Source: a virus
Reading direction: 5' to 3' (one strand)
Virus record (IMG/VR): IMGVR_UViG_3300045988_158900
DNA length: 37,614 bases
Part shown: positions 21,634-37,614 of the stretch, one piece after another
Layout: each line of letters opens with the position of its first letter
Position numbering within the stretch: position 1 is the stretch's first letter
Program-made: the position numbers and the translations under genes
The notes under the pieces: generated by a model
What the model was told of the DNA's origin: nothing
What the model saw: only the letters and a program-made list of their open reading frames with translations
Databases searched by the model: none

Positions 21634-21637
21634 AATA

Positions 21638-23269: not shown

Positions 23270-23446
23270 ATGGCTACTATCGCAATCCTCGCAATCCTCG
23301 CCCTCGCTGGCTTTGCTGGCGTTCAGTGTGTCGGCGGGTATATGGTCTATCGTCAGACGCACGACTGGCACTTCCTCATTGGCTCTATCCTATATGGCGT
23401 TGCCTGTATCGGTCTGGTGCGCTTCGTGTTCAATATGGGGTGGTAA
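23270..23446 (+). CDS. 58-aa small membrane protein (MATIAILAILALAGFAGV...)
   Basis: Promoter GTTGACA-N17-TGCTATACT and RBS AAAGGAGG lie 8 nt before ATG. Two hydrophobic segments. Below the track length cutoff. Confidence 0.55.
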   Translation: MATIAILAILALAGFAGVQCVGGYMVYRQTHDWHFLIGSILYGVACIGLVRFVFNMGW

Positions 23447-23447
23447 T

Positions 23448-23771
23448 ATGGAAAACTACACTATGTCGAACCATCTGACAGAGGAGCGGGCTAACCGACT
23501 CGCCCTCTTACAGGAATACCTCGGATATTCCGACCGCGTGATGATTGAGGTCATTGACCAACGCCAAACCGCCCGTCTGCGTTTGCTCTCGACTGGCATC
23601 ATCTTGGTGCTGGACTTATATGAGAATTTCATCATCACCGCATACCCCGCAACTTTTGAACGGGCTGTCGCTATATACAAGAGTGCGGGCAAAAACCGTC
23701 TGCCCCAGCAGTTGGTCAAACGCATTCGCAAGAATGAGGAACGCCACCCTGAATTTTATGTGGTGAAGTAG
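23448..23771 (+). CDS. Hypothetical protein, 107 aa. The only island gene ending in TAG.
   Basis: ATG lies 1 nt after the upstream TAA. The 5-prime part of track ORF 23211..23771 overlaps the membrane peptide and lacks an RBS, so the start was moved to 23448. Confidence 0.5.
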   Translation: MENYTMSNHLTEERANRLALLQEYLGYSDRVMIEVIDQRQTARLRLLSTGIILVLDLYENFIITAYPATFERAVAIYKSAGKNRLPQQLVKRIRKNEERHPEFYVVK

Positions 23772-23842
23772 AAAATTGGGGCTTGACAAACAAGCCCCTA
23801 TCTGCTATAATAAATAATACCAAGAGAAAGGAGAATACCAAA

Positions 23843-24073
23843 ATGGAATTTATTGAACCCCCTATCTATGTCAAGTTGAGCGATGAAGAGCGCAATTCAC
23901 TCCATGAAGCCTATGTTATTCTAAATGACCTCGCGACTGCCGCCGAAGAAGATGACAGCGAATACATTGGCAACCCGCTAACTGGTGATGGCTATGGGCG
24001 GTTTGATGTGAGCCAAGCCGCTGAAATCTGCCGAGTGTTCGCGCCTGCTGAAAAACTGGAAATTAGTAATTGA
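23843..24073 (+). CDS. Small acidic protein family, copy 1 of 3 tandem paralogs (76 aa)
   Basis: RBS GAAAGGAGAAT. The segment EPPIYVKLSDEERNSLHEAYVILNDL aligns with copies 2 and 3. Confidence 0.6.
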   Translation: MEFIEPPIYVKLSDEERNSLHEAYVILNDLATAAEEDDSEYIGNPLTGDGYGRFDVSQAAEICRVFAPAEKLEISN

Positions 24074-24087
24074 GGGAGGAAAACAAA

Positions 24088-24315
24088 ATGGAAGTTATTA
24101 AACCCCCCATCTATGTCAAAATGACAGAGAAGGAGCGGAAAACCCTGCGCGATGCCTATGATATTCTGAATGAACTGTATGACGTCATCGCCGATAATGA
24201 CTGCGAGTATGTGAGCGATACTTGCGGGAATAACTATGACAGAGTGGACGTTGCGCTTACGGCTAATGTGCTTCAAATGCTTGCCCCCACTGAAAAAGTG
24301 GAAATCGGCAAATAA
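24088..24315 (+). CDS. Small acidic protein family, copy 2 of 3 (75 aa)
   Basis: RBS GAGGGAGG. The segment KPPIYVKMTEKERKTLRDAYDILNEL aligns with copy 1. Confidence 0.6.
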   Translation: MEVIKPPIYVKMTEKERKTLRDAYDILNELYDVIADNDCEYVSDTCGNNYDRVDVALTANVLQMLAPTEKVEIGK

Positions 24316-24330
24316 AAGGAGGTAAAACAA

Positions 24331-24561
24331 ATGAACATCATTACCTCAAACGTTCAGGTTCAACTCACCCAAGAGGAGAAGGACAAACTCCAAGACGCCC
24401 GCGAGGTTATTTCTCACCTGTTTGATTTGATGTATGACTACGAACAAGAATACGCTATTTCCAACATTGGCGAAAAGTATTCTATGGGCCAAGTCCGTGA
24501 TACCTCAAACCTGCTGGCCGCGCTTATCGGGTCTGATAAAATGCGGTTAGAAAATAAATAA
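24331..24561 (+). CDS. Small acidic protein family, copy 3 of 3 (76 aa)
   Basis: RBS AAAGGAGG. Same length and conserved ..LT.EE...L.DA..V...L..... pattern. Terminator at 24567-24591 is directly followed by the next -35 hexamer. Confidence 0.5.
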   Translation: MNIITSNVQVQLTQEEKDKLQDAREVISHLFDLMYDYEQEYAISNIGEKYSMGQVRDTSNLLAALIGSDKMRLENK

Positions 24562-24649
24562 AAAAAATGTGGGAGAAATCCCACATTTTTTATTGACAAC
24601 ACAACCAGTAGGTGTAGTATAATGTAGACAATGAAACAAGGAGGTAACA

Positions 24650-24856
24650 ATGACCACATTTCAAATTCGAGAGGAACTGGCGAACCGCTACAATTTAGAA
24701 ATCCGCAATGTCTGCTGTTATCACTGTGAATACTGGGGCTACAACCGCGGCAAGGTGCTGAATAGCGTGGGCGAGAGTAAATGTATGAAGCGCAAGAACG
24801 AGCGCACTTGGTGTCGTCAATTCTGCCGGGGTTTCGTTCCGAAATCAGGAAAATAA
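24650..24856 (+). CDS. Cys-rich zinc-binding small protein, 68 aa
   Basis: Track ORF with RBS AAGGAGG. Cysteine pattern CC-H-C ... C..C...C. Sequence MTTFQIREELANRYNLEIRNVCCYHCEYW... Confidence 0.55.
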   Translation: MTTFQIREELANRYNLEIRNVCCYHCEYWGYNRGKVLNSVGESKCMKRKNERTWCRQFCRGFVPKSGK

Positions 24857-24907
24857 ATCATTTGGGCTGGATAAACAAAAATCCAGCCCAATTTTTGTAT
24901 AATTTTC

Positions 24908-24966
24908 CACTTGACATTTTCGGCCGCGCGCTCACGAATGTGGCGCCCGGCATTTTTGTCAATAGG
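24908..24966. repeat. Palindromic promoter element copy 3 (truncated: arms plus hairpin, without -10 boxes)
   Basis: CCACTTGACA, hairpin, then ATTTTTGTCAATAGG. On plus the hairpin is followed by T5, so it is terminator-like. Confidence 0.5.
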
Positions 24967-25068
24967 TATACTTCACAAATTTTTCACCGCAATTTTGTGC
25001 ATTTTGACGATTGACTTCTATCCCGTAATACGGTATAATGGCTATACTGAAACAAGGAGGTAAGAACA

Positions 25069-25287
25069 ATGGAGTTGAAGAAAGCGTATCAGATGGTTTT
25101 CAGCGACCTGCATAATTGTCCTATGTTCCAAGGGCGGTATGACGCCATCAATGGCAATCCCTACTTTATGTTCGGCATTGAGACGGTTATGGAGGTAATC
25201 GCCAATCGCGCCTATGATGATGATTTTACCGAGAATTTCTCCAATGAATTTACTGACAATATGTTAAGGAGTAGAGAAAGTGTTTAA
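25069..25287 (+). CDS. Hypothetical protein, 72 aa
   Basis: Box plus promoter GATTGACT-N17-CGGTATAAT and RBS AAGGAGG. Track ORF. Confidence 0.55.
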   Translation: MELKKAYQMVFSDLHNCPMFQGRYDAINGNPYFMFGIETVMEVIANRAYDDDFTENFSNEFTDNMLRSRESV

Positions 25288-25465
25288 TATTGTATTGGCA
25301 CTAATCGTCGTAGGCGGGTGCGCGTGGGCGATTATCCACTTTATCCTCTGGCGAGACGAGAAATACTTATCCACCGAGGAGCAAATCCGCGAAATGATGG
25401 ACGAAACGTCCATTCCCACTGACACGCTGTGGAGTATGTATAACAAACTGACAGAGGGGCGTTAA
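25280..25465 (+). CDS. Small membrane protein, 61 aa (GTG start)
   Basis: RBS AGGAGTAGAGAAA-GTG. N-terminal TM helix MFNIVLALIVVGGCAWAIIHFILW. Confidence 0.45.
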   Translation: MFNIVLALIVVGGCAWAIIHFILWRDEKYLSTEEQIREMMDETSIPTDTLWSMYNKLTEGR

Positions 25466-25601
25466 TGCCCCTCTTGTTGGGTTTAGTCCTGGCTAACTAC
25501 ACGGAACAAAAAACTAATCCTGTGAGAATATAACTACAACAAAAATTTTTCTTGACATTTTCAAATAAATGTGGTAATATTATTATACTGAAAAAGGAGT
25601 G

Positions 25602-26078
25602 ATGACTGTGAACGCAATTATTCTATTCATTGTCTGTACCGCTATCAATGTGGTGCTGTCCACCATTAAGTCTATTTTGACTGTCAAAGGCAATAAGTGG
25701 ATTGCCGCCAGTATCAATGCGCTGACTTATGGCTTCTATTCCTATGTCATTATCCTGACCAACATTGACGGCGTTTCTACGTTGGCAAAAATGGGCATCA
25801 CCGCCGCCTGTAATTTCGTTGGTGTGCTGGCGGTCAAGTGGGTCGAGGAGCTGGCGCGCAAAGAAAAGTTGTGGAAAATCGAAATGACTGTTCCTACTAA
25901 GTATCGAGCCGCTGTGGATTTTGACCTGCGAGACATTCCCCACTCATACATTGAGATTAGCAACAAACATACACTATTCAATTTCTATTGTGCCACGCAA
26001 GCCGAGAGCAAAAAGGTCAAGGACATTGTAGCACAGTATGGCGCAAAATATTTCGTAGCAGAAAGCAAAAATTTGTAA
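25602..26078 (+). CDS. Membrane protein with three TM helices and a C-terminal soluble domain, about 158 aa. The start may instead be GTG at 25608.
   Basis: Promoter CTTGACA-N17-TGGTAATAT and RBS AAAAAGGAG. Hydrophobic N-terminal half. Function unknown (superinfection-exclusion-like topology). Confidence 0.5.
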   Translation: MTVNAIILFIVCTAINVVLSTIKSILTVKGNKWIAASINALTYGFYSYVIILTNIDGVSTLAKMGITAACNFVGVLAVKWVEELARKEKLWKIEMTVPTKYRAAVDFDLRDIPHSYIEISNKHTLFNFYCATQAESKKVKDIVAQYGAKYFVAESKNL

Positions 26079-26144
26079 AATAGGGGTTGACAAATCAGCC
26101 CCTATGTGTTAGAATGGTATCATCAAATAAGGGAGGATAACAAA

Positions 26145-26294
26145 ATGGAAATGATTAAAGTTTTCAATGACCACACTGGCGAAATCCTTGAAAAGACGTT
26201 CGTAGACCCCGCGGACGCGGACGACTTCGAGTTCATTCTCGACTTCCTTGAAACGAGATACGAACGCTACCACAACGGCGAACAAATCTACTAA
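26145..26294 (+). CDS. Small acidic protein, 49 aa
   Basis: Hairpin-embedded promoter ATAGGGGTTGACAAATCAGCCCCTAT..TGTTAGAAT and RBS AAGGGAGG before ATG at 26145. Confidence 0.5.
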   Translation: MEMIKVFNDHTGEILEKTFVDPADADDFEFILDFLETRYERYHNGEQIY

Positions 26295-26307
26295 GGAGGG
26301 CGCGACA

Positions 26308-26505
26308 ATGGAAATCAAAGATGTGTACTACAACGTTGAGTGGTGGGGCATAACCACTTGGGGCGAACGCTTCACTAATAGCGAATGGTTCAAGGATGAA
26401 AATGAAACTCTGTCGTTCATCGCGAATGACCTGGCGAATGACCCGCTTGTTCGCGGAGCGACCTTCACCACACACAAAACCATCGTATTTAAGAGAGGAG
26501 AATAA
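26308..26505 (+). CDS. Hypothetical Trp-rich protein, 65 aa
   Basis: RBS TAAGGAGGG before ATG at 26308. Sequence MEIKDVYYNVEWWGITTWGERF... Confidence 0.5.
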   Translation: MEIKDVYYNVEWWGITTWGERFTNSEWFKDENETLSFIANDLANDPLVRGATFTTHKTIVFKRGE

Positions 26506-26507
26506 AA

Positions 26508-26705
26508 ATGTTTACTGCTCTGTTTTTGGTACTGGTATGCCTTGGCATCGACTTCCTGTTCTCTGCTGGCTTCTCCCCGCCATTGGCATCGTGTCCATCG
26601 GCTCTTTCGTTATCGCGTTCTCGTGGAAACTGGTGCTGGTGTTTTGGCTCATTGTCGCAATCCTGCGTTCCATCTTCCGCGTCACTGTCAAGAGTTAATA
26701 AATGA
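26508..26705 (+). CDS. Small membrane protein with ambiguous frame. The ATG/RBS frame (26508..26705) and a -1 frame (26540..26698) both look coding.
   Basis: RBS AGAGAGGAG before ATG at 26508 gives a TM start MFTALFLVLVCLGIDFLF followed by a low-complexity tail. The -1 frame gives two clean TM helices (MPWHRLPVLCWLLPAIGIVSIGSFVIAFSWKLVLVFWLIVAIL). Possible frameshift or indel. Confidence 0.35.
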   Translation: MFTALFLVLVCLGIDFLFSAGFSPPLASCPSALSLSRSRGNWCWCFGSLSQSCVPSSASLSRVNK

Positions 26706-26745
26706 AAAATCTCCCAAATTTGGGAGATTTTTTTTGTTTATTTTG

Positions 26746-26848
26746 CCTATTGACAAAAACCCCTATTTGTGGTATACTCGGCCGAGCGCCCACGGCCCTG
26801 GCGCTCGAAATTTCCATTATACACCCTGCCAGCAATTTTGTCAATAGG
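26746..26848. repeat. Palindromic promoter element copy 4 (PE4)
   Basis: CCTATTGACA-N17-TGGTATACT, hairpin CGAGCGCC cacggccct GGCGCTCG, then reversed TATAAT..TTGTCAATAGG. Confidence 0.65.
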
Positions 26849-26985
26849 TAAATTGAACAAATTTACCCAAGCGCGCATCCCGAAAGTTTGTGCGAAATGA
26901 CCAAGAGCAGAATTGAAAAAAACTGTTGACAAATCGCGTTTTATCCTGTATAATAGCATTACAATCAAGAAAGGAAGTTGATACT

Positions 26986-27432
26986 ATGACTATCTATCTG
27001 GACATGGACGGGACTATCGCCGACCTGTATGGCGACCCTAACTGGCTGGCAAAGCTGGAAGCCGCGGACACGAGCGTATATGCGGACGCCCGCCCGCTTG
27101 TCCACTTCTCCACCCTCGCCCGCTATCTGAACCGCTTACAGGCGCGGGGCTACAATATCGGCATCATCAGCTGGCTGTCCAAGAGCGGAACGGATAAGTT
27201 CAATGCCGAAGTTGCCGAAGTCAAGCGCGACTGGCTGGCAAAGCATCTCCCCAGCGTGGAATGGGATGAAATTCATATTATCCCCTATGGCGTTCCTAAG
27301 TCCAACTGTGCGACCTGCCCCAACGCGATTTTGTTCGATGATGAACAGCGCAACCTCAACGAGTGGACGGCAAACACCCACAATATGGCATACAACGCCG
27401 ACCTTCTAATGGAAATTCTGCGCAACCTGTAA
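26986..27432 (+). CDS. 5-prime(3-prime)-deoxyribonucleotidase, HAD superfamily (NT5C-like), 148 aa
   Basis: N-terminal HAD motif I IYLDMDGTIADLYG and later ILFDDE. Box plus promoter TGTTGACA-N17-TGTATAAT. RBS GAAAGGAAGTTGATACT-ATG is shared with the two cassette A genes. Confidence 0.65.
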   Translation: MTIYLDMDGTIADLYGDPNWLAKLEAADTSVYADARPLVHFSTLARYLNRLQARGYNIGIISWLSKSGTDKFNAEVAEVKRDWLAKHLPSVEWDEIHIIPYGVPKSNCATCPNAILFDDEQRNLNEWTANTHNMAYNADLLMEILRNL

Positions 27433-27544
27433 AAAAAATAGCAAATAGGGGTTGACAATCTCACTCCTATTTGCTATAATATGTAATGTAATTAAGGTAT
27501 GGGACACGATGGTAAGCCCAACCAAGAGAAAAGGAGAATGAACA

Positions 27545-28201
27545 ATGAAAAATATCTACTGCACGCTGGATACTGAAACGGTAGGCGGCGCGGCTCGCCC
27601 CACGGGAATGTATAATGTGGGCGCGATTATCCACGACCGCAAGGGCGAAATTCTCGCCACCACTTCCCTGCTGGTGATGGAGCATTATGACGAAATCGCC
27701 CTTGATGGCTACGCCAAGAAGAATTTTCCGGTGTATGCCGAACGGCTCAAAACTGGCGAAATCTCCGCTATCGCCACGGAGCGCGAAGCCTATGAGGTAG
27801 TCAAAAACCTGTGCGACCATTACGGCGTTCGCTATGTGATGGCATACAATTCCGGTTTTGACTTCTGCAAGACCTGTTTCCGCGACCTGCTGGATAATTT
27901 CGAGTTCATCGACTTGTATCTTATGGCACTGGAAACTATCACCCACAAAAAGTCCTATGCGGAATATTGTCGAGAACACGGCAAGCGTTCCAAGAATGGC
28001 AAGACCTGTGCAACCTCTGTCGAAGCGGTGTATGGTTATCTCCACGATAATCCTGACTTTTCCGAAGAACACACCGCCCTGTCTGACGCTATGCAGGAAA
28101 TGGAAATTTTCCTCGCCTGTCAGAAGATGCACAAGCGATACACCAAGAACGTCCACGCATGGGACGCACCTTTTGAGGTAAAATGTTTTCCCAAGTTTTG
28201 A
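27545..28201 (+). CDS. DEDDh-family 3-prime-5-prime exonuclease (DnaQ/RNase T-like), 218 aa
   Basis: Exo I CTLDTETVG, Exo II YVMAYNSGFDFCK, Exo III HTALSDAMQEMEI (H-x4-D). Preceded by a 10-codon uORF MVSPTKRKGE (27508-27540) inside a conserved leader. Confidence 0.7.
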   Translation: MKNIYCTLDTETVGGAARPTGMYNVGAIIHDRKGEILATTSLLVMEHYDEIALDGYAKKNFPVYAERLKTGEISAIATEREAYEVVKNLCDHYGVRYVMAYNSGFDFCKTCFRDLLDNFEFIDLYLMALETITHKKSYAEYCREHGKRSKNGKTCATSVEAVYGYLHDNPDFSEEHTALSDAMQEMEIFLACQKMHKRYTKNVHAWDAPFEVKCFPKF

Positions 28202-28268
28202 GATTGGGGCTTGACAGCCCCTTTCTCATGTGGTATAATGACTATACTAAGACAAGGAGGTAAGCGAA

Positions 28269-28484
28269 ATGCCTATTAAGCAAGTGCTTTTTAAGGGCGA
28301 CCATTCTGATGGTGTTCAGGCTGGCATTCAGCTTGAAAATGGTTTCGTAATCTGTGCCTGTTGCGGCGGAGTATTTGAGCCTGATGAAATCGAAATTCTC
28401 CACGTGTTCGATTATTGGGTTGACTTCTCCGAATGGATTGGCGACCCTGACCTGACTGAATACCGTAAGCACGACACCCCGTAA
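28269..28484 (+). CDS. Hypothetical small protein, 71 aa (4 Cys)
   Basis: Hairpin-embedded promoter GGGGCTTGACAGCCCC..TGGTATAAT and RBS CAAGGAGG. Track ORF. Confidence 0.55.
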   Translation: MPIKQVLFKGDHSDGVQAGIQLENGFVICACCGGVFEPDEIEILHVFDYWVDFSEWIGDPDLTEYRKHDTP

Positions 28485-28558
28485 AAAAAGTTTGGAATGG
28501 GGGTTGACAACGCCCCCATTCCATGCTATAATAACATTACAAATTCAAGGTAGGGGAA

Positions 28559-29089
28559 ATGATGGTAAGCCCCACCAACAGAAAAGGAGAAAAAACTATA
28601 AAAGCTCGCTATGCTAACCTGACTAACTTCAATCGCGTGGTCAATACCTACAAATGGATGGTTTCCAAGTTCGGAAGTAAGGAGTTCTCCTCTGAGGACT
28701 TTAAACAGGCAAAGCGCAAGTATCGGCGATACACCTACAATTCCCTTGCGTTTCTGCGGGACGAGGGTATCATCAAGGTAGTCCGCACCGAACAGACCAC
28801 CAAGGAAATTAACCTGTCTCCGTGGGAAGCGGACATTTGGATGATTGACAAGGATGGCAGCGCCCTGATGACCGAGTATGACTGGGTACGTTTGCCGGAC
28901 GTGGCGCAGAACGCTCTGCGTGCTCTGAATGGACAGAATTTCCGCACGGAGCGCAAGGACACCAAGACTGTGGAAGTGGAAAAGTCCATTTACACGGTCA
29001 ATCCTGATGGTATGCTGGCATGCGCAAGAGGTATGGGCGTCTGTTGGCTGAAAGGGCTGACGCGCTGGCGGGCGAAATCGCAAACCTGA
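28559..29089 (+). CDS. Hypothetical protein, 176 aa. Its N-terminus MMVSPTNRKGE is homologous to the uORF of the exonuclease leader.
   Basis: Promoter GGAATGGGGGTTGACAACGCCCCCATTCC..TGCTATAAT. The leader is about 85% identical to the 27480-27545 leader, but here it is fused in-frame to the ORF. Confidence 0.5.
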   Translation: MMVSPTNRKGEKTIKARYANLTNFNRVVNTYKWMVSKFGSKEFSSEDFKQAKRKYRRYTYNSLAFLRDEGIIKVVRTEQTTKEINLSPWEADIWMIDKDGSALMTEYDWVRLPDVAQNALRALNGQNFRTERKDTKTVEVEKSIYTVNPDGMLACARGMGVCWLKGLTRWRAKSQT

Positions 29090-29172
29090 ACGAAAAGCGG
29101 GACGCATTTCTCGCTTGTCAGTTCTAACAAAAATGAGGGGAGTTTTCCCCTCATTTTTTTTGTATAATTTTC

Positions 29173-29274
29173 CCTATTGACAAATGCGCCTGGACATGGT
29201 ATAATGGCCGGCCGATTTCGCGCGTCTCGGCCGGAATTCACCATTATACACCCCGCCAGCAATTTTGTCAATAG
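29173..29274. repeat. Palindromic promoter element copy 5 (PE5)
   Basis: CCTATTGACA-N17-TGGTATAAT, hairpin CCGGCCGA tttcgcgcgtc TCGGCCGG, reversed promoter ending TTGTCAATAG. Confidence 0.65.
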
Positions 29275-29365
29275 TTTTTTTACACAAATTTTTTTATTTA
29301 TTTTTCCCAAAACTTGTATAGTTTGCCTGTTGTAATCCATGCCCACCTGTGCTATACTACATAAT

Positions 29366-29925
29366 GTCAAGAGGGAGTGAGACCCCGTGGGCTGGGCTAA
29401 TGGTATGTAATGTCCCAAGTGTAAGTGAGAGCGCGCCGTACTGAAAAAAAAGACCAAAATTCCCTCTTGACAAACTCCATCAAAGGTGCTATAATGGGTA
29501 GTGTCAAGAGGGGAACGGCACGGCAGATGCGTCTAATGTGTCGCCTGTGTAGACAGGTTTCAGAAATTTGGAAAAATTTCAAAAAACCTCTTGACAAACC
29601 CCAACACCTGTGTTATAATTGATAATGTCAAGAGGGGAACAGCCCCACCCAAGAAATCCGCGGGTCGCGAACCGTGAGAGAGTAAAGGAAGTAAGCCCTA
29701 TACCAGCGCAGTAATCCCAAACGATGAACGAAAAGTGAGTGGATTGGTCAGTTCGTCCATGCGCATGGAAACGTTGAACCAACAAGCAACACCTTATTCG
29801 TCAGGCGAGGTTGTAAGTCGTTGTGAATACTTGTGGGACGTTCCCCTGTTGGCACTATTAAAAAAAATCAAGAATTTTGAAAAAAAGTCTTGACAATCCC
29901 AGCGTAAGCTGTTATAATAGATAAT
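29366..29925 (+). ncRNA. Tandem array of three promoter-driven small structured RNAs (about 105, 85 and 265 nt) with a conserved 5-prime AAUGUCAAGAGGG(G)AAC leader
   Basis: Promoters at 29318-29359, 29467-29495 and 29591-29619, each TTGACA-N17-TATAAT. Each transcript 5-prime GUCAAGAGGG can pair with the CCCUCUUGAC that forms the next -35 region. No ORF longer than 10 codons. Tiny GTG-started ORF (M)GWANGM at 29387-29410. Confidence 0.5.
29890..29918 (+). promoter_or_regulatory. Consensus promoter of cassette 1 (TTGACA-N17-TATAAT)
   Basis: Exact hexamers. The transcript begins AAUGUCAGGAGGGCAAAGCCCUC (5-prime hairpin) before the RBS. Confidence 0.6.
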
Positions 29926-29974
29926 GTCAGGAGGGCAAAGCCCTCAAAACCAAATGGAGAAAGGAATTGATACT

Positions 29975-30355
29975 ATGGCTAACACTAACACCACCACCCG
30001 CAAGCCCACCAAACGCGACAATTTCACCGCCCTGCTCAAGCTGTCCGAGGTCAAGGCTGACCCCAAGCTGGTGGAGTTCATCACCCACGAAATCGACCTG
30101 CTCGACCGCAAGAACACCGTGGACAAGAAGCCCACCAAGACCCAGCAGGAGAATGAGGCCATCAAGACCACTGTCCTGTCCGCTATGGAGAGCAACCGGC
30201 TGTATTCCATCAGCGAGATGCTCAAAGAGTTCCCCGTCTGCAAGGACATGAGCAATCAGAAGCTGTCCTCTCTGGTGCGGCAGATGGTGCTGGATAAGCA
30301 GGTGGAGCGCGTGGAGGACAAGCGCAAGGCGTTCTTCCGCAAGGTGAGCGCGTAA
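29975..30355 (+). CDS. Cassette protein A1, 126 aa (paralog of A2)
   Basis: RBS GAAAGGAATTGATACT-ATG. Conserved with A2: TKRD.FTALLK, ELLDRKNTVDKKPT.TQ, SNQK.SSLVRQMVLD.Q..R.EDKRKA.F. Confidence 0.6.
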   Translation: MANTNTTTRKPTKRDNFTALLKLSEVKADPKLVEFITHEIDLLDRKNTVDKKPTKTQQENEAIKTTVLSAMESNRLYSISEMLKEFPVCKDMSNQKLSSLVRQMVLDKQVERVEDKRKAFFRKVSA

Positions 30356-30406
30356 ACCTCAAAGGGTGGGGAGCAATCCCCACCCTAACCCTGAAAGGAG
30401 TACCGC

Positions 30407-30763
30407 ATGACTGACCGAGTTGCCGACCTCATGCGAAAGCTGGATTGTACCGAAGCCGAAGCCAAGGACATTATTGTTCAAGATGCTATCATCGACAAGG
30501 GCGGCAATCCATTTCCGCTGACCGAGGAACAGGAAAAGGCAAGCAAGAAAGCGCGGGGAGTAGGACGCCAGCCGACCGCATACAAGTTCGCGCCAAAAGA
30601 AAGAAAGGCTAATCTCACAAAGCAGGGCATTATCACCCTACTGACCGAGACACTGACCACATACGGCGCGACTGACCTGAACGTGAGCAACGTGGAGCGC
30701 GAATTTTTATTCACGCTTGATGGAACAAAATACAAGGTTGTGCTGTCGTGTCCGCGCAAGTGA
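30407..30763 (+). CDS. Cassette protein B1, 118 aa (paralog of B2)
   Basis: RBS GAAAGGAG. Conserved with B2: PTAYKF..(K/R)ERKAN.TK..II..L. Terminators flank the gene. Confidence 0.6.
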   Translation: MTDRVADLMRKLDCTEAEAKDIIVQDAIIDKGGNPFPLTEEQEKASKKARGVGRQPTAYKFAPKERKANLTKQGIITLLTETLTTYGATDLNVSNVEREFLFTLDGTKYKVVLSCPRK

Positions 30764-30801
30764 GGGAGAGAAATTCTCCCTCATTTTTTTTGTGTATTTT
30801 G

Positions 30802-30903
30802 ACTATTGACAAATTTGGGCGCGTGTGGTATAATTCGGTCGCGCGTCCACGTATGTGGCGCTCGAAATTTCTATTATACACCCCATTGGCAATTTTGTCA
30901 AGC
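30802..30903. repeat. Palindromic promoter element copy 6 (PE6)
   Basis: GACTATTGACA-N17-TGGTATAAT, GC hairpin with loop CCACGTATGTG, reversed promoter ending TTGTCAAGCG. Confidence 0.6.
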
Positions 30904-31013
30904 GTTTTTTTACACAAATTTCAAAGATTGAAAATCCCGTTTTTTGTAGGTATTGCCTATTGTAATTCTCCTGTAATGTGCTATAATGATGATACTGAAA
31001 GGAGCGATGAACG

Positions 31014-31697
31014 ATGGAGTTTCCGAGAGTTCAGGATTTTATCCTGACCATTCAGCAGGCGGTGTCTAAAAAACCGCGTTTGGTCAACCGCGCTGATGAC
31101 CTGTGCCGAGTTATCCACAACACATACCCTGATGTCAAGATAATCACCAGCAACGGCGCAAGCAAGGAATGTCTGGTGTTCCCTGAGTTGGGCTATGTCC
31201 TCAAATGGTCTATGGAGACGCGGGACGCAGAGCGCGAAGTGGCTGTGTATCAGAAAGCCGTAGACGCAAACCTCGCTGATTTTTTCCCCGCCACTATGCT
31301 GGCTGGCTACATTGTTCCCCCGCGCAAGTGTGATAATCCTGTTGCATTTACCGCACAACAGATTATTAACACCAGTGCCCATAAAATCCATTGGAGTAAG
31401 GGCGGGTTGAAAACTCGTCTTTCGCGTATCGCACAGACTGTCCCCGATTGTCGTATTTCTCAGATTGAACGGCAGTTCCGCAAAGCTGATGTTAATGGCT
31501 ATGGGCGCGACCTCGATGGGCTATGGGCGAAAGTTGCCGTTTCTATCTACGGTAAGCGCAAGGTTATCGCCCTCTGTGAGTTCGTTAAAAAGTATCACAT
31601 CAATGACCTCCACGGCTCAAATATCGGCTACATTGGCATCTTTCCTGTTATCCTCGATTTCTCCGGCTATGGCGTCTGTGATGGTTTAGAGTTTTGA
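31014..31697 (+). CDS. Hypothetical protein, 227 aa
   Basis: Box plus promoter TATTGTAA-N17-TGCTATAAT and RBS GAAAGGAG. Track ORF. ATG at 31005 in another frame gives only 20 aa. Confidence 0.55.
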   Translation: MEFPRVQDFILTIQQAVSKKPRLVNRADDLCRVIHNTYPDVKIITSNGASKECLVFPELGYVLKWSMETRDAEREVAVYQKAVDANLADFFPATMLAGYIVPPRKCDNPVAFTAQQIINTSAHKIHWSKGGLKTRLSRIAQTVPDCRISQIERQFRKADVNGYGRDLDGLWAKVAVSIYGKRKVIALCEFVKKYHINDLHGSNIGYIGIFPVILDFSGYGVCDGLEF

Positions 31698-31741
31698 AAA
31701 AAACTCTTGACAAACAGCCCCGCCTGTGCTATACTAACATC

Positions 31742-32095
31742 GTGAGGTGAGAAAAATGAAATGGCGATTGTATCGTCCCCCTTAGTAATCAATCTATGAT
31801 TATTGATTAGATATATTTATAGATTGATTAAGACCCCAGCCAAGATGGAGTTTAATAGAGTGTTTGTCCCACTCAATAATTTCTTCTCAACCGCCATCTT
31901 GAACCCCTCGTTAGAAATTGGGACTGGGTACGAAGTTCTAACCACATTCACCGTGTGCCGAGAAAGACCCTCCATAGTGGGCTTTGCGCCCCGGTTTTGG
32001 GTCTACTGTGTAGAAGTGGGCTGGCTGTCCGGACGGCTGGCGAACATCAACAGGGGAACCAGCGTAGTAGCCAACTACGCTGGTTTATTTTTGTT
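31742..32095 (+). ncRNA. About 350-nt promoter-to-terminator non-coding transcript with a 9-codon leader ORF MKWRLYRPP (31756-31785, TAG stop)
   Basis: Promoter TTGACA(31707)-N17-TGCTATACT(31730). Terminator CAGCGTAGTAGCCAACTACGCTGG followed by a T-run at 32060-32100. Only a 9-codon ORF has an RBS (GAGGTGAGAAAA-ATG). The track ORF 31803..32132 lacks an RBS and reads through the terminator. Confidence 0.45.
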
Positions 32096-32102
32096 TATTT
32101 TG

Positions 32103-32203
32103 CCTATTGACAAATGCGCTCGAATGTGTTAAAATGGGTCGGGCGCTCACGGCTGTGGCGCCCGAAATTTCCATTATACCACGTGGCACAAATTTTGTCA
32201 AGT
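32103..32203. repeat. Palindromic promoter element copy 7 (PE7)
   Basis: CCTATTGACA-N17-TGTTAAAAT, hairpin TCGGGCGC tcacggctgtg GCGCCCGA, reversed TATAAT..TTGTCAAGTG. Confidence 0.65.
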
Positions 32204-32294
32204 GTTTTTTTGCACAAATTTTGAATGTTGAAAATCCCATTTTTTGTGAGTATTGACTATTGTAATTTGCCCAAGGGTGTGGTAATATATAATT

Positions 32295-32440
32295 GTTCCA
32301 AGGGAGAGGGTAAGACCTCCGGCGGGGCGTGTACCTTAAAAAAAAATTCCACAAATCCGAAAAAAAGTCTTGACAAGGCTTCGGATATGTGTTAGAATAT
32401 AGATGTTCCAAGAGGGAAACAACAATATGGTGGGCGACAC
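32295..32440 (+). ncRNA. Two tandem small RNAs with an UUGUUCCAAG(G)GAG leader variant and a 5-codon uORF MVGDT preceding cassette 2
   Basis: Promoters at about 32253-32289 and 32370-32398 (TTGACA-N17-TAGAAT). Same organisation as 29366-29925. Confidence 0.4.
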
Positions 32441-32466
32441 CTAAAAACGCAGAAAGGGTTGATACT

Positions 32467-32919
32467 ATGACTGCTATCACTTCCACCGCTAACCGCCGTA
32501 TGACCAAGCGGGACTACTTCACCGCCCTCAAAACCTTTGCCGAGGTGGGCGAGTTCAAGTTCCCCATTTCCCAGCGTATCGGCACTTCCGAGGACTTCGA
32601 GACTGTCTATGTGGACATTTCTCCCGCAGAGATAGCGGAGTTCGCCAAGCATGAGCTGGAACTGCTCGACCGCAAGAACACCGTGGACAAGAAGCCGACC
32701 GCCACGCAGGTGGCAAACGAGGGTATCAAGGCTGACATCAAAGCGTTTCTGGACGCCCACAAGGGCGAGAAGTACACCGTGTCTGCTCTGATGAAGTCTG
32801 TTCCCACTATCGCCGATGCGTCCAATCAGAAGGTTTCTTCTCTGGTGCGTCAGATGGTGCTGGACGGTCAGGCAGACCGTATCGAGGATAAGCGCAAGGC
32901 GTATTTCACCGCCAAGTAA
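32467..32919 (+). CDS. Cassette protein A2, 150 aa (paralog of A1)
   Basis: RBS AAAGGGTTGATACT-ATG, identical spacing to A1 and the NT5C gene. Terminator GGGGGGGAGATATTCTCCCCCC follows. Confidence 0.6.
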   Translation: MTAITSTANRRMTKRDYFTALKTFAEVGEFKFPISQRIGTSEDFETVYVDISPAEIAEFAKHELELLDRKNTVDKKPTATQVANEGIKADIKAFLDAHKGEKYTVSALMKSVPTIADASNQKVSSLVRQMVLDGQADRIEDKRKAYFTAK

Positions 32920-32977
32920 GGTATGGGGGGGAGATATTCTCCCCCCTATCCCCTAAAATCTGAAAAGGCGGTGTTTT

Positions 32978-33376
32978 ATGGCTGAAATCTCCAAAACCGA
33001 ATGGCTGAAAAACGCTATGGCGAAAATGGGCTGGACTGCCGATGAAGCGGAAGCCGTGTGGAACTCTGACCGAGAAATCGACAAGGGCAAGGCACAGGAT
33101 TTTGACCTGTCGAAAGAACAGCTCAAAATTGCCCAAAAATTCGCCAAGACTGGCACTCGCAAGACCCCCACCGCATACAAATTCACTACGAGGGAACGCA
33201 AGGCAAATCCCACGAAAGCGTCCATTATCGCTGAACTCGCAACATTTTTGACCGAAAACAGCGAAAATGCCTGCGAAAATGTGGAAATTACCAACAAAGA
33301 GCGTCAAATTGCGTTCAAAATCGGTGAAAATTCCTATGAACTGACTCTTGTGCAGAAGCGCAAGCCGAAAAGTTGA
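32978..33376 (+). CDS. Cassette protein B2, 132 aa (paralog of B1)
   Basis: Track ORF. Conserved PTAYKFTTRERKANPTKASIIAEL with B1. Confidence 0.55.
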   Translation: MAEISKTEWLKNAMAKMGWTADEAEAVWNSDREIDKGKAQDFDLSKEQLKIAQKFAKTGTRKTPTAYKFTTRERKANPTKASIIAELATFLTENSENACENVEITNKERQIAFKIGENSYELTLVQKRKPKS

Positions 33377-33426
33377 GAAAATGGGGGAGAAATCCCCCAT
33401 TTTCCCCAGAAAACGAGGAAAAAAGT

Positions 33427-33771
33427 GTGAAAAACAAGGAATTTTTGTATGTAGGGCACTATTATGATGAAAATGGCGTATACATTCTGAAAATAGGCAC
33501 TACTAATGACTTAAAGCGCAGACAGCAGGAACACACGAGAAACTACCGCAAGACCGCCGTTCACCGTTTACCGCACAATTCTGAATTTATTTACGATTTT
33601 TCGCTACCGCTTTCCAAGTATAATACTTTGCGATACGAGGACAAAAACCGTGAGAAATGGCAGAAAATGGGATACGGTGTGTTTGTGAGAAATGACAGAT
33701 TTGCATGTCCTGTGAAGCCAAAATCTGTTGAAATTACCATTCGTCGAACTTACCAAATCGCTCTCGATTGA
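33427..33771 (+). CDS. GIY-YIG domain protein (T5orf172-like), 114 aa, GTG start
   Basis: RBS GAGGAA 6 nt before GTG. Motif LYVGHYYDENGVYILKIGTTNDLKRRQQEH matches GIY..(10)..YIG.T.NL.RR..EH. Confidence 0.55.
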   Translation: MKNKEFLYVGHYYDENGVYILKIGTTNDLKRRQQEHTRNYRKTAVHRLPHNSEFIYDFSLPLSKYNTLRYEDKNREKWQKMGYGVFVRNDRFACPVKPKSVEITIRRTYQIALD

Positions 33772-33794
33772 GGGCGATTTTTTTATTCAATTTG

Positions 33795-33870
33795 ACTATT
33801 GACAACGCCCTCTGACTGTGGTATAATGGGTCGGGCGCTCACGGATGTGGCGCCCGGCATTTTTGTCAAG
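33795..33870. repeat. Palindromic promoter element copy 8 (right arm truncated)
   Basis: GACTATTGACA-N17-TGGTATAAT, hairpin CGGGCGC tcacggatgtg GCGCCCG, then CATTTTTGTCAAG. Confidence 0.55.
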
Positions 33871-33994
33871 ATACATTTTCAACAATTTTTCCGGCGAAAA
33901 TTTGTATAAATTGACTATTGCATTTTGTCCCGAAATGCGCTATACTATAAACAATCTGAGGGAGCTGGAACCCACCAACAGCACGGAGGCATTT

Positions 33995-34606
33995 ATGAAT
34001 AAGAGCCAGTTTTTTGACCACGAAATCGAGTTCATTCAGTCCGAGGATTTGCGCTCATTCGTGCGCTACTACTTCGACTGTATCGTTCCCGACTATTTCT
34101 GGACTATCGGCGCAAGTTCTTCCGGCAAGTTCCATCCGGCTATGAGCCAAGGCGAGGGCGGTTTGGTGCGCCACACTAAGGCGGTCGCGTGGTTTTGCGA
34201 GGAATTGCTCCGCATGAGCCAGTGGGCGTATCTCACTGACGAGCGCAAGGACTACGCAAGAGTTGCCTGTCTGCTCCACGATACCGCCAAGTATGGCTTA
34301 CACGAGTTCGACAAGGAGTTGTACCCCAAGCACGGGGCTATGGCGGCTGACCAAGTTCGCCGTTCGTGGCTGGTATTTTTCGAGAATGACTGCCCCTATG
34401 AGTTGACGCAAGCCATCAAGTCCCACATGGGTCAGTGGACTACCGACAAGGCGGACAGACCTTTCACTCCTATCGACAGACTGGTACACATGGCTGACTA
34501 TGTGGCAAGCCGTTCGTTCATCGACATTCCGGCAATTAACGCTGACTATAACGACAAGGCGGAACTGGACGAAATTTCGCCTGAACTGCCGTGGGAGGAG
34601 GAATAA
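33995..34606 (+). CDS. HD-domain metal-dependent phosphohydrolase, 203 aa
   Basis: H..(about 35)..HD motif (FHPAMSQGEGGLVRHTKAV ... CLLHDTAKY). Box plus promoter ATTGCAT-N17-CGCTATACT. The leader contains CCCACCAACAGCACGGAGG, related to the exonuclease leader. Confidence 0.65.
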   Translation: MNKSQFFDHEIEFIQSEDLRSFVRYYFDCIVPDYFWTIGASSSGKFHPAMSQGEGGLVRHTKAVAWFCEELLRMSQWAYLTDERKDYARVACLLHDTAKYGLHEFDKELYPKHGAMAADQVRRSWLVFFENDCPYELTQAIKSHMGQWTTDKADRPFTPIDRLVHMADYVASRSFIDIPAINADYNDKAELDEISPELPWEEE

Positions 34607-34608
34607 TC

Positions 34609-34743
34609 GTGACCCCTAAATTTTACTTCAACGCTGACGAGAATGTATGCGCGAGTGAGCACTGGGTCATCCAGTATCTCCACATACAAAATCCCGACAT
34701 AGACGAGGATGAAATCGAGGGCGAACTCCACTCCCGCCGGTAA
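34609..34743 (+). CDS. Small acidic protein, 44 aa, GTG start overlapping the HD gene stop
   Basis: RBS GGGAGGAGGAATAATC-GTG. Sequence MTPKFYFNADENVCASEHWVIQYLHIQNPDIDEDEIEGELHSRR. Below the track cutoff. Confidence 0.4.
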   Translation: MTPKFYFNADENVCASEHWVIQYLHIQNPDIDEDEIEGELHSRR

Positions 34744-34837
34744 TATTTCGGTTGGTATGAGTGTCAAATGTCCGATGACATTTTCAACAACTTTTGTTAA
34801 AGGTGGAGAAATCCACCTTTAATTTTTGTTCATTTTG

Positions 34838-34950
34838 CCTATTGACAACGCGAGCCCAGTGTGGTATAATAAAAGGGGAGGTGCAACGGGCCGAGCGCGG
34901 GCGCTGCGGTCCGAATTTCCATTCTCCCACCCCATATGGAAAATTTTCCG
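34838..34950. repeat. Palindromic promoter element copy 9 (degenerate right arm). Followed by three CATATG-containing palindromes at 34933-35010.
   Basis: CCTATTGACA-N17-TGGTATAAT, GC hairpin GGCCGAGCGCGGGCGCTGCGGTCC, then GAATTTCCATTCTCCCACC. Confidence 0.45.
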
Positions 34951-35144
34951 TGATTCTAGCGGCCTTCATATGCGCCCATATTTTCCCGAAAATCCGAGCC
35001 CCGCTCGGTACTCATATGCCGCCCGGTTTGACATAAAAAAAAATTTATGTTATAATGATAAAAAAAACCATTTTTTTTCTCACTTGACTTTTAAAAAAAT
35101 TTTTTGTATAATATATGTATACAAAATGAAAAGAGGTTATTTAT

Positions 35145-35519
35145 ATGAATAAGAACGATATTCTGACGCGCTTAATGAATGGCGAGAGCGCTGAGGATAT
35201 TGCTAAGGAAATGACTGCGATGCTGAATGACGCCACTAAGGCATATGCTGACCAGAAGAAGGACAAGGAAAAGATGGCCCGAGCGGAAGCGGTTGCCGAT
35301 ACTATCAACGACTATGCGGCCTACGTCGGCTATAAGGGCGCAGAGTTGAAGGGTGAGGACGTCATTAAGGTTATGGACAGTTTCCTTAAATTCTACAAGG
35401 ACCCAGGTAATTTCAAAATTGAACTCCCCGGTTTCCGTTTTGAAACAAACTCTAAGGGTGCGATTAAGAAGGGCAAAACCGTTGATGAAATCATCAACGA
35501 CTGGATTTCTCGCATTTAA
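35145..35519 (+). CDS. Hypothetical protein, 124 aa (last island gene, with an AT-rich promoter)
   Basis: Track ORF. Promoter CTTGACT-N17-TGTATAAT and RBS AAAGAGG. Strong terminator at 35533-35595. Confidence 0.55.
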   Translation: MNKNDILTRLMNGESAEDIAKEMTAMLNDATKAYADQKKDKEKMARAEAVADTINDYAAYVGYKGAELKGEDVIKVMDSFLKFYKDPGNFKIELPGFRFETNSKGAIKKGKTVDEIINDWISRI

Positions 35520-35532
35520 TTTCGAATAACGT

Positions 35533-35595
35533 GTCGGCCCAGGTATTTTTCATTTGGGAAATTGGCAATTAGAATACCTGGGCTCGACGTTTTTT
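35533..35595 (+). terminator. Strong intrinsic terminator
   Basis: Long hairpin GTCGGCCCAGGTAT...ATACCTGGGCTCGAC followed by TTTTTT. Confidence 0.7.
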
Positions 35596-35677
35596 GGAAA
35601 GGGTGTCTCGAAAAATTCAGAAGATGACGATAACGATAAAATTGAGTGATAAATTGATACCGAGCGGGGGGCACCAA

Positions 35678-35791
35678 ACTCCCATCATTTTCTTTCACTC
35701 CCATCATTTTCTTTCACTCCCATCATTTTCTTTCACTCCCATCATTTTCTTTCACTCCCATCATTTTCTTTCACTCCCATCATTTTCTTTC
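35678..35791. repeat. Perfect tandem repeat, 19 bp x 6 (ACTCCCATCATTTTCTTTC), at the island right boundary
   Basis: Six identical head-to-tail units with no spacers. Confidence 0.85.
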
Positions 35792-36019
35792 AAAGTTATT
35801 ATCATTATCAATTTCTAACATTTTGTTATTAAGAGGAAACATTATAAGGTTCCATTATTCGTTGTTTACAATTATATTCATCAAACCCCGCTAATAGGTT
35901 TATTTAATTATGATTTAGTTTTTGTAAAGGTAAAACAATAATCAAACCTCAGATTCAAAAAAACGTTATAAGTCAAAATGCATTAAAAAAATGGAGTGGT
36001 TTATCGCCACTCCATTTTT

Positions 36020-36385
36020 TTATTCCTTATACATTAAATCACTTAAAATATCATTATACGCTGATTCCAGGAGAGAATCAACCAGAGTTGAATCAACCTT
36101 CACTTCACTCTCCACTTTCACTCCAACAGGCGGAGCATAATACTCCTCATCACGAGTAAGTTTAACCCAAGGCGTTGCCTTTCTATGACTCAGACTACCA
36201 TCTTCATAAATAGTCGCAATCCAATAGCCATCAACAATAAGGGCGTTGTTATAATCATATAGAATATATACATTATCACCCAGGTCATCATACTTAGAGC
36301 GCACAATCACATCTCTACCTTTATAATTTCCAACTCTTTTACTATATTTATTTTTCAGTTCATCATAAGTAAATTCATTTTTCAT
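36020..36385 (-). CDS. Hypothetical protein, 121 aa
   Basis: Track ORF with TAA stop. A bidirectional terminator GGAGTGGTTTATCGCCACTCC flanked by A- and T-runs lies at 35985-36025. Confidence 0.5.
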   Translation of the reverse strand: MKNEFTYDELKNKYSKRVGNYKGRDVIVRSKYDDLGDNVYILYDYNNALIVDGYWIATIYEDGSLSHRKATPWVKLTRDEEYYAPPVGVKVESEVKVDSTLVDSLLESAYNDILSDLMYKE

Positions 36386-36448
36386 TTTTTCATTTCACTT
36401 TCTAAAACGTTCCTTAATGTTTTGAGATAGTGCCCCAATTTTTAGATG

Positions 36449-36630
36449 AATATCCGGTCTCAAGCGCCGACGGGCTTAGGGAGGTTTTTGTGGCATAATT
36501 AATAGAATTACTAATATTTACACTATTATCATTCTAATAATATCCGGTCTCAAGCGCCGACGGGCTTAGGGAGGTTTTTGTGGCATAATTAATAGAATTA
36601 CTAATATTTACATAATTATCATTCTAATAA
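36449..36630. repeat. Tandem duplication, about 90 bp x 2 (2 mismatches), covering the 3-prime end of the adjacent gene
   Basis: TATCCGGTCTCAAGCGCCGACGGGCTTAGGGAGGTTTTTGTGGCATAATTAATAGAATTACTAATATTTACA(C/T)(T/A)ATTATCATTCTAATAA occurs twice head-to-tail. Confidence 0.8.
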
Positions 36631-36932
36631 TACCCAGAAGAATAAGGGTCTAATGAACGAAAATTTACATTTAACTTTTGATTGTCCTTTCCGCCATAAA
36701 TAACACCCTCGGGAGGTGCAGAGGGGCGGAGCTCCTCTGCGAAACAAATCTTTACAGGCTTATAGTTGCTAGGTAATACAAAATAGATTGTATCATCTTT
36801 TAAATATGTTTCTACTTTAATTGCCTTTTCAGGCACTTCTTCTTTACAGCATCTTTTAAAATGCGCTACATTCTTATTATTTACTTCCACAGGAATATTA
36901 TATTCCCCATTTAATCCACTATGATAACCCAT
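36567..36932 (-). CDS. Hypothetical protein, 121 aa, with 1 in-frame TAG (at 36624)
   Basis: Track ORF 36624..36932 continues 19 codons through a TAG to TAA at 36567. The extension lies inside the tandem duplication. Confidence 0.4.
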
Positions 36933-37289
36933 TTTTTATTTCTCCTTTTACCTATTTATAATTTTTCTAATTAAATTCAAATAAAAAGTAAGTATGCGCT
37001 TATTTCTTATTTTTATATATTAAACCCATATATTTCATTTATATTATCATTTAAAAATGGATTCTCTACGTCCTTATTTACCCTTCCTGCTTCCTCAATA
37101 CAAAAATATAAATCATTATTATTAGTTAAATATATATTATCTATTTTCTAAAAATTTAATGCTTTACTTACTAAATTCTCATAAGAACCTTTATAAAATT
37201 TTATCATACCCATATACATCCTTTTTATATATTATATTTATACATTAATAGGAACTTTTTATTCCAAATTTTCCATTACTGCCACTTTT

Positions 37290-37614
37290 CAAGTGCCACA
37301 ACGTGCGGTTGTATTTATACAACCACACCATTATTTATATTTATATTTATATTTATATTTATATTGCGGTTGTAATGGTTGTAATGGTTGTATTTAAATG
37401 TTTTTGGTTGTAAATTTTAATTCAAAATGGTTGTAATGGTTGTATTTGGATAAAAATGGTTGTTAAGTTGGTTGTAAAAATCATAGATTTTTATTTAGTT
37501 TTAACAACCATTTTACAACCATTTTACAACCATTTTACAACCAAATTGTGTGAAACAACCATTTTTGGTTGTAAAACAACCATTTTAGTTGTATTTATAT
37601 AATTTTGGTTGTAT
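37290..37614. repeat. Iteron field: at least 12 direct and 7 inverted copies of heptamer GGTTGTA (TACAACC), with a palindrome GGTTGTATTTATACAACC and (ATTTAT)x5 at 37332-37365. Extends to the window end.
   Basis: Visible repeats GGTTGTAATGGTTGTAATGGTTGTATT..., then TTACAACCATTTTACAACCATTTTACAACCATTTTACAACC (11-bp unit x4) and AACAACCATTTTTGGTTGTAAAACAACCATTTTAGTTGTA. Confidence 0.75.

Follow-up and report, generated by a model that had tools for sequence, protein, structure and literature searches.

The replication origins of SaPIs carry short iterons directly behind the 3′ end of rep, and these flank an AT-rich region from both sides with opposite orientations (PMC9371898). In phage lambda, gene O contains four 18-bp iterons with an adjoining AT-rich stretch of 38 bp (PMC3349717). 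At bacterial origins, double-strand boxes guide the initiator onto an adjoining periodic motif (PMC8287927). The locus described here is a dense field of GGTTGTA/TACAACC repeats at the end of a viral DNA of 37,614 nucleotides (IMG/VR record IMGVR_UViG_3300045988_158900; this whole stretch is referred to below as the window). It resembles each of these designs in part, and we estimate the probability that it is an iteron-type replication origin, with origin function included in the claim, at about 0.4.

The window derives from a gut phage with a genome of about 195 kb, in which TAG is decoded as glutamine. Between positions 441 and 17077 of the minus strand, a clean tiling of long ORFs was obtained only when TAG was treated as a sense codon, with 0 to 10 in-frame TAG codons per late or structural gene. 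Since the TAG codons of the helix-turn-helix (HTH) gene described below sit on invariant Gln columns of its family, also in comparison with a non-recoding relative, the codon was assigned to Gln (code 15-like). No suppressor tRNA was found in the window, and Rfam and tRNA scans of it returned nothing. The late ORFs include those for the large terminase (TerL), the portal protein, a virion structural protein and a sigma-like protein. Judged by the terminase, the nearest cultured relatives are large Firmicutes siphoviruses, namely Enterococcus EF1/H1, Geobacillus E3 and the TAG-recoded gut phage phAss-1. Directly upstream of TerL, the minus strand encodes a 398-aa zinc-ribbon protein (14759-15955) and a sigma-factor-like protein of 354 aa (phrog_5767; 15998-17062) whose C-terminus is a zinc ribbon; no small terminase was recognisable. 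A scan of GTDB genomes retrieved three MAG contigs, and the host is uncertain, because these fall in Faecalimonas and 'Treponema' bins.

Code usage and GC content switch together along the window and give it a sharp two-state composition. The late genes (1-18900) are TAG-recoded and have about 30% GC, and the early genes (19000-35500) are small, lie on the plus strand, use the standard code and have 44-51% GC. The field belongs to a low-GC, TAG-rich island of about 3.3 kb (35500-37614 in the window) that has the opposite orientation and is placed inside the GC-richer early genes. At the start of the early region, past a terminator-like hairpin, three 28-bp units with the inverted repeat TTGTTAA...TTAACAA were found (19472-19550), and a 27-bp repeat present in 2.3 copies (18969-19034) precedes them closely on the upstream side; the two are candidates for operator arrays at the boundary between late and early genes. 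Another repeat, a perfect 19-bp tandem (ACTCCCATCATTTTCTTTC, 6.1 copies, 35678-35792), occupies the non-coding gap between converging operons, and its copy number differs in a scaffold that is 99.9% identical (L001).

Within the window, 17 exact copies of GGTTGTA or TACAACC were counted, 14 of them within 37307-37613 and the other three scattered (7429, 24740 and 29809), as compared with a mean of 3.7 and a maximum of 8 in dinucleotide-preserving shuffles of the whole window. Five additional copies in the field carry one mismatch, namely GGTTGTT/AACAACC at 37458, 37503, 37554 and 37575, and AGTTGTA at 37587. The first-pass annotation had reported at least 19 copies of the heptamer in both orientations within 325 bp, a count that we reproduced as the sum of the 14 exact and the five one-mismatch copies, with a 20th cut by the end of the window. 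The tandem units, the fourfold 11-bp array, the palindrome and the AT-rich microsatellite that it listed also agree with the sequence and, the palindrome apart, with the output of Tandem Repeats Finder, i.e., (TATTTA)5.7 at 37332-37365, GGTTGTAAT in 2.8 copies at 37368-37392, and an 11-bp unit in 4.0 copies at 37500-37543; its (ATTTAT)5 is the hexamer tract of Table 1.

The whole field could be read in L002, a near-identical 35-kb contig from another sample that crosses the window end without a break. It contains 31 copies in about 510 bp (37307-37815 in extended coordinates), and not a single GGTTGTA or TACAACC was present in the 8.6 kb of L002 beyond it. As the copies are dense in the field and at chance level elsewhere, we regard it as one site and not as a dispersed promoter element, that is, one site per genome region, as is expected of an origin, a packaging site or a centromere. 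Alignment of all copies gave an 8-bp core, T-GGTTGT-A/T, in an A/T context, with the T at -1 present in 28 of the 31. The centres of the copies are phased at 10.0 bp somewhat above random positions (amplitude 0.54 versus 0.47 for the 95th percentile of the latter).

The order of the elements is given in Table 1. The distal inverted repeat contains the palindrome GGTTGTA-TTTA-TACAACC (37307-37324). The minus strand of the adjoining hexamer tract, which is the sense strand of the HTH gene, consists of A and T only, save for the first C. The repeats of array A are at 37368, 37377, 37386, 37406, 37429, 37438, 37458 (GGTTGTT) and 37470, and those of array B at 37503 (AACAACC), 37514, 37525, 37536 and 37554 (AACAACC). 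The mixed palindromic part runs for about 200 bp further in L002, where it encodes the C-terminal tail of the HTH protein.

Table 1. Position of the repeat field, its elements and neighbouring genes (window coordinates unless marked as extended)
Feature	Position	Strand	Remarks
Large terminase (TerL) gene	13024-14757	-	22.5 kb from the field
Bidirectional terminator hairpin, strong	35984-36022		closes the operon and parts it from the converging early genes
121-aa ORF	36020-36385	-	last gene of the minus-strand operon; relative at the same position in L139
172-aa ORF	36414-36932	-	two in-frame TAG; 90-bp tandem duplication at 36449-36632
68-aa ORF	37013-37219	-	immediately downstream of the field; one in-frame TAG; not conserved, replaced in L125
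Distal inverted repeat pair	37303-37328		GTGC-GGTTGTA-TTTA-TACAACC-ACAC; 10/11 arm positions complementary; read from the sequence
Hexamer tract	37331-37366	-	CAATAT (AAATAT)x4 AAATAA; 36 bp; sequence and Tandem Repeats Finder
Array A	37368-37476	+	eight repeats in GGTTGTA orientation; spacings 9, 12 and ~20 bp
Spacer between converging arrays A and B	37477-37502		26 bp, 3 G/C
Array B	37503-37560	-	five repeats in TACAACC orientation; 11-bp period in four
Mixed palindromic part, start	37567-37614		copies at 37567 (+), 37575 (-), 37587 (+) and 37607 (+)
HTH gene	37684-38256 (extended)	-	last in the conserved RHH, 61-aa, HTH operon

Beyond the field, L002 carries three minus-strand genes (in window orientation) that are transcribed toward it. 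They encode a 49-aa ribbon-helix-helix (RHH) protein (Pfam DUF6290 / RHH_1, Arc/CopG-like), a conserved 61-aa protein and a 190-aa protein with a sigma-70 region 4 / LuxR-type HTH at residues 94-131. The operon comprises six genes, with the RHH gene first, and is transcribed divergently from the early genes. In its distal part, the 90-bp duplication adds 30 residues to the 172-aa ORF; it is present as a single copy in L002, and contig L003 ends at it. The last ~45 codons of the HTH gene are the repeats themselves. In-frame TAG codons in this gene number seven in L002 and 11 in L140, and there are none in L139.

More than 1,000 metagenomic proteins without a name form the family of the HTH protein, and many are encoded by contigs 90-200 kb in length. 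In AlphaFold, the C-terminal tail of the family is disordered, and 99 of 121 proteins end in Phe after it (for example DDLWSKF, SFNDF, GFRF and KYDF), from which we conclude that the reading frame through the repeats is kept. Members ending in ...LVIL are apparently gene calls truncated at TAG. Similar C-terminal Phe tails are known from SSB, from gp2.5 and gp4 of T7 and from clamp-binding peptides. No ATPase or helicase domain was detected in the HTH protein, and its fold matches were to generic HTH regulators only. Its sole match in NCBIfam was sigma-70 region 4, and a PDB sequence search with a profile gave nothing below E = 0.006. When the N-terminal domain alone was used as a query, it retrieved short proteins or fragments exclusively, and not one fusion to a replication domain. 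The only other architecture was a fusion of this domain to a PD-(D/E)xK nuclease in place of the HTH (P0012 and P0014), and the same nuclease domain is present in a homing-endonuclease-like ORF of the window (12657-13013, minus strand) between the genes for the large terminase and the portal protein.

The comparison covered 12 loci that represent seven lineages or more, and the HTH proteins encoded there share 34-46% identity with the present one. All of the loci have one order, HTH gene, repeat array, hexamer tract and inverted repeat, with the array (4 to ~40 copies) overlapping the 3′ end of the HTH gene. The tract, CAATNN(WAATNN)n with three to seven units, follows at a fixed distance past the last repeat, its AAT always on the HTH-sense strand; in L134 the first unit is a variant. 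Beyond the tract, every relative has an inverted repeat with arms that resemble the repeats of the array, TTGT[A/G]...[C/T]ACAA, and a GC-rich centre, which is often followed by a GC-rich hairpin. The repeats of all lineages have the core TTGTA in common and differ in step with the recognition helix of the protein: QQT[IV][AS]K occurs with GGTTGTA, QQTVSY with TACAAAC and TACCAAA, QQ[IM][IV]SY with TACAAAA, and QQLVSS with TACAAA[AT]. Because of this co-variation, the HTH protein almost certainly reads the repeats, and we consider it highly probable, on the strength of the sequence comparison, that the field, with its 31 copies overlapped by the gene of the putative binder, is the binding array of that protein. 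The 36-bp tract, flanked by repeats on both sides as in all loci, is the predicted unwinding element. Of the initiator-binding iterons proposed in the first-pass annotation, the binding thus appears sound; the initiator and origin part is plausible from the layout. The RHH protein was also considered as the reader of the hexamer tract, and this candidate was weakened by L126, which retains the tract without an RHH gene.

These features suggest how the field could work as an origin. The 8-bp repeats, with their phase of roughly one helical turn, would be occupied by many copies of the HTH protein. The last of these repeats would lie at its fixed distance from the strand-specific CAATNN(WAATNN)n tract, with the inverted repeat pair closing the far side, and the bound array would then open the A+T-rich hexamers. 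The disordered, repeat-encoded tail, which ends in aromatic-x-x-Phe, may recruit a replication partner. The proposal draws on three parallels, namely a binder gene that overlaps its own sites, as in lambda O (PMC3349717), an A+T-rich element between opposite repeats 3′ of the binder gene, as in SaPIs (PMC9371898), and a fixed junction from a double-strand site to a periodic tract, as between DnaA boxes and DnaA-trios (PMC8287927). A wider generalization, which we regard as rather unlikely, is that an extensive group of gut Firmicutes phages without cultured members (130-200 kb) uses an undescribed kind of origin. In such an origin, a small sigma-4-type HTH protein without an ATPase would polymerise on dozens of 8-bp repeats, and the last of these would set it on the (WAATNN)n tract, in parallel to a DnaA box and its DnaA-trios. 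The aromatic-x-x-Phe hook of the repeat-encoded tail would recruit the replisome, and in recoded lineages the TAG-to-Gln recoding would gate the HTH protein and so tie a replication step to the code switch.

The resemblance to each described system is partial. As in SaPI origins, the gene of the reader is directly followed at its 3′ end by short repeats (SaPIs 5-6 bp, here 7-8 bp), and an A+T-rich stretch is flanked by repeats facing in opposite directions (PMC9371898). The SaPI reader is, however, the C-terminal winged helix of a hexameric helicase and not a 190-aa HTH protein without an ATPase, and there are 6-12 repeats in SaPI origins, which lack a hexamer-periodic tract, versus 31-40 here. 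With lambda, the field shares repeats that are inside the initiator's own gene, encode a linker and adjoin an A+T-rich stretch (PMC3349717), and transcription runs across the site in both cases. Unlike the dozens of 8-bp repeats found here, lambda has four 18-bp iterons, and its O gene is followed by that of the helicase loader P, for which no counterpart was seen as a neighbour of the field; neither sequence nor fold similarity of the HTH protein to lambda O was found. In the satellite phage P4, ori and crr contain the octamer TGTTCACC in direct and inverted copies that are read by the C-terminal DNA-binding domain of alpha. The field is similar in having short repeats in both orientations read by a DNA-binding domain, but alpha is a primase-helicase fusion, whereas the reader in the present phage is a stand-alone protein. 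The likeness to DnaA boxes and DnaA-trios, a double-strand site separated by a short, constant distance from a strand-specific repeat with a short period (PMC8287927), is one of design only, here without a known ATPase: DnaA-trios have a period of 3 nt and are read by the AAA+ domain of DnaA, whereas the period here is 6 nt (WAATNN) and no cluster of DnaA boxes is present. In numbers, DnaA boxes (TTATCCACA, up to one mismatch) occur 15 times in the window versus 12.5 expected, and one of them lies in the field, which speaks against a DnaA-dependent (oriC-like) origin.

A search of viral contigs for the GGTTGTA motif itself led to an unrelated contig, L032 (IMGVR_UViG_3300031357_000003), in which GGTTGTA arrays converge on an A+T-rich centre, as arrays A and B do on their spacer. 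Its region 7820-8170 contains 13 copies of GGTTGTA/TACAACC in two converging arms bracketed by alternating (GC)n inverted repeats. It lies directly 3′ of a gene for a primase-helicase (CHC2 zinc finger and AAA_25), between this gene and that of an SF2 helicase. At its C-terminal end the primase-helicase carries an HTH, ...VSQQYISK, in which Lys occupies the position that is paired with GG/CC in the HTH family; the similarity of this HTH to the family is weak (hhalign probability of 83% over 30 residues). We count L032 as an independent case in favour of the origin reading of the present field. Region 7820-8170 is likely an origin, and it matches the SaPI arrangement far better than the present phage does; its reader, as in P4, is part of a primase-helicase. 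When viral contigs were scanned for GGTTGTA in three spaced copies, more than 120 matches were obtained, mostly coding repeats or unrelated arrays, of which only L032/L056 were informative. Comparison of the HTH segment with ORFs around these arrays (phmmer) revealed no significant match outside L002. Intergenic clusters of TTACAACC/GGTTGTAA in both orientations were seen in L012, L017/L098/L029/L054, L024, L120 and L122.

Several observations speak against the origin reading of the present field. In the ~10 kb to each side of the field (window, L002, L136 and L137), we recognised no gene for a helicase, primase, polymerase or loader, which is a weak negative, since many neighbouring genes are unannotated. 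The first-pass annotation had named replication genes beyond position 37614 and GC skew as checks of its candidate origin; neither came out in its favour, the skew being local only and keeping its sign across the field. The layout keeps that candidate plausible, against which stand the lack of a recognised replication gene within ~10 kb and of a local change in the sign of the skew. Unlike initiators accompanied by a helicase, loader or primase, the HTH protein has neither an ATPase nor a recognised replication gene beside it, and 30-40 sites are far above the copy number of known origins. The argument from L032 is weakened by the low similarity of its HTH to the family and by the fact that the contig was retrieved with this very motif. 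According to the published recoding model, TAG-rich genes are expressed after the code switch, which suggests that the TAG-rich HTH gene of recoded lineages is expressed after it too, late for an initiator. This objection is softened by the HTH gene of L139, which has no TAG, and by the report in the recoding paper that replication genes are variably recoded.

The end of the window required separate consideration. The window stops at the centre of a 16-bp palindrome inside the field (TGGTTGTA/TACAACCA, the slash marking where the window stops), and its last 11.6 kb are 99.7-99.96% identical to the first 11.6 kb of L001, a 194,444-bp ENA scaffold (XIEH16-1_SAMEA3449300_METAG-scaffold_63) found by protein look-up, which begins at the exact base where the window stops. 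The field is, however, internal in at least five other contigs (L002, L125, L126, L136 and L137). In L125, a 197,697-bp IMG/VR contig (IMGVR_UViG_3300045988_140174) with an HTH protein 94% identical to the present one, it lies about 70 kb from the nearer end and measures about 675 bp, sub-units of 60-80 bp being duplicated. The break in the window is surrounded by duplications of 40-80 bp as well. Given the internal position of the field in these contigs, the end of the window is best explained as a contig end caused by assembly failure in nested repeats and not as an end of the genome, so that the genome terminus suggested in the first-pass annotation finds no support. The field is a recurrent cause of assembly breaks in these genomes.

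Other explanations of the field were weighed against an origin. It could be a regulatory array that the HTH protein, with the RHH protein, coats for the control of transcription and that has no role in replication, acting either as a roadblock or silencer in its own six-gene operon or as part of an early-late switch. An HTH of the sigma region 4 / LuxR type is used by transcription factors, an Arc/CopG-like RHH repressor heads the operon, which diverges from the early genes, and TAG recoding would delay production of the HTH protein; moreover, in the small phage L134 the module lies upstream of the genes for HNH, TerS and TerL, the usual place of a late activator. Regulators, however, seldom need 30-40 sites, the field of the large phages is not ahead of structural genes, and the other intergenic regions that were seen do not contain the motif. 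Promoter-like sites in and around the field are not enriched (14 versus 13 expected), and control of transcription would explain neither why the junction to the hexamer tract is constant nor why the Phe tail is conserved, which makes a purely regulatory role unlikely in our judgement. A sigma factor or activator with a promoter array was rejected for related reasons (three chance-level copies outside the field in 37 kb, no promoter enrichment), and so was a T5-like injection-stop signal, as its binder cannot be made before the code switch in recoded lineages. The idea that nothing functional is involved, the field being a repeat expansion or an assembly artefact, could draw on the copy number that differs between strains (~510 bp in L002, ~675 bp in L125) and on the tendency of assemblies to break there. 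It is effectively refuted by the comparative data and retains hardly any probability, since the ordered layout and the junction recur in at least seven diverged lineages, from independent samples and assemblers, with repeat sequences specific to each lineage.

In SPP1, P1 and lambda, for example, the small terminase is an HTH protein whose repeated binding sites are close to its gene, and the HTH protein of the present phage might likewise be a site-specific partner of the terminase, with the field as a packaging site (the pac/cos-proximal repeats of the first-pass annotation) or a physical terminus. This direction is indicated not only by the type of protein but also by its HTH, which weakly matches (E = 0.0024) a small-terminase PHROG, and by the late-type TAG recoding, which fits a late function; so does the common end of the window and L001 point to it. 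The latter is not independent evidence, since the near-identity of the two and sample names of the same format suggest one assembly pipeline, and the break lies among duplications. Besides the internal position of the field in the other contigs, which speaks against a genome end at the site, TerL is not adjacent but 22.5 kb away, and 1.3 kb downstream of its field L134 encodes a separate small terminase (phrog_2538, E = 1.7e-21), so we consider a packaging function improbable. An end of the protelomerase (N15) type was also examined: the palindromes of the field are only 14-16 bp long, and no large recombinase-like gene was present within 10 kb. Plasmid centromeres are composed of dense short repeats in both orientations with helical phasing and adjoin RHH or HTH genes, and the phased two-way repeats beside the RHH and HTH genes resemble them (R1 parC/ParR, pSM19035 omega heptads and tubC/TubR). 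A partition centromere or anchor of a plasmid-like phage, bound by one or both of these proteins, would also agree with weak matches of some family members to RepB, KorB and ParB-type HTH models. Those three systems, to our knowledge, always have an adjacent partition NTPase. No ParA, ParM or TubZ-type NTPase gene, in contrast, was found beside the module in any of the 12 loci, the HTH family had no match in 72,556 plasmid records, and L126 keeps its field though the RHH gene is missing; we thus hold a centromere to be very improbable.

A description of the module was found neither in the literature, in which a search for DUF6291 returned no papers, nor in collections of phage and plasmid records. 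BLAST of the field region against 50,697 phage records gave no match, and neither did tblastn of the HTH protein against phage records and the plasmid records mentioned above; the Pfam models that touch the module are domains of unknown function. In its design, an iteron array with a cognate binder, the module appears to be of a known kind. What is unusual is the very high copy number, the hexamer-periodic tract, the tail encoded by binding sites and the putatively TAG-gated expression. No member of these stop-codon-recoded gut phages has been cultured, and in several clades of this kind the origins could not be located by published skew analyses. A conserved cis site together with its cognate binder and a readable helix-to-base code offers a concrete handle on these phages, and the field can be used for finding starts of replication or packaging in metagenomic coverage and as a marker of the phage group. 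If the field is an origin, double-strand boxes combined with a periodic opening element would also exist outside DnaA, and there would be an initiator with a linker encoded by the sites that it binds; otherwise, the field would still be a striking case of a protein co-evolving with its binding sites.
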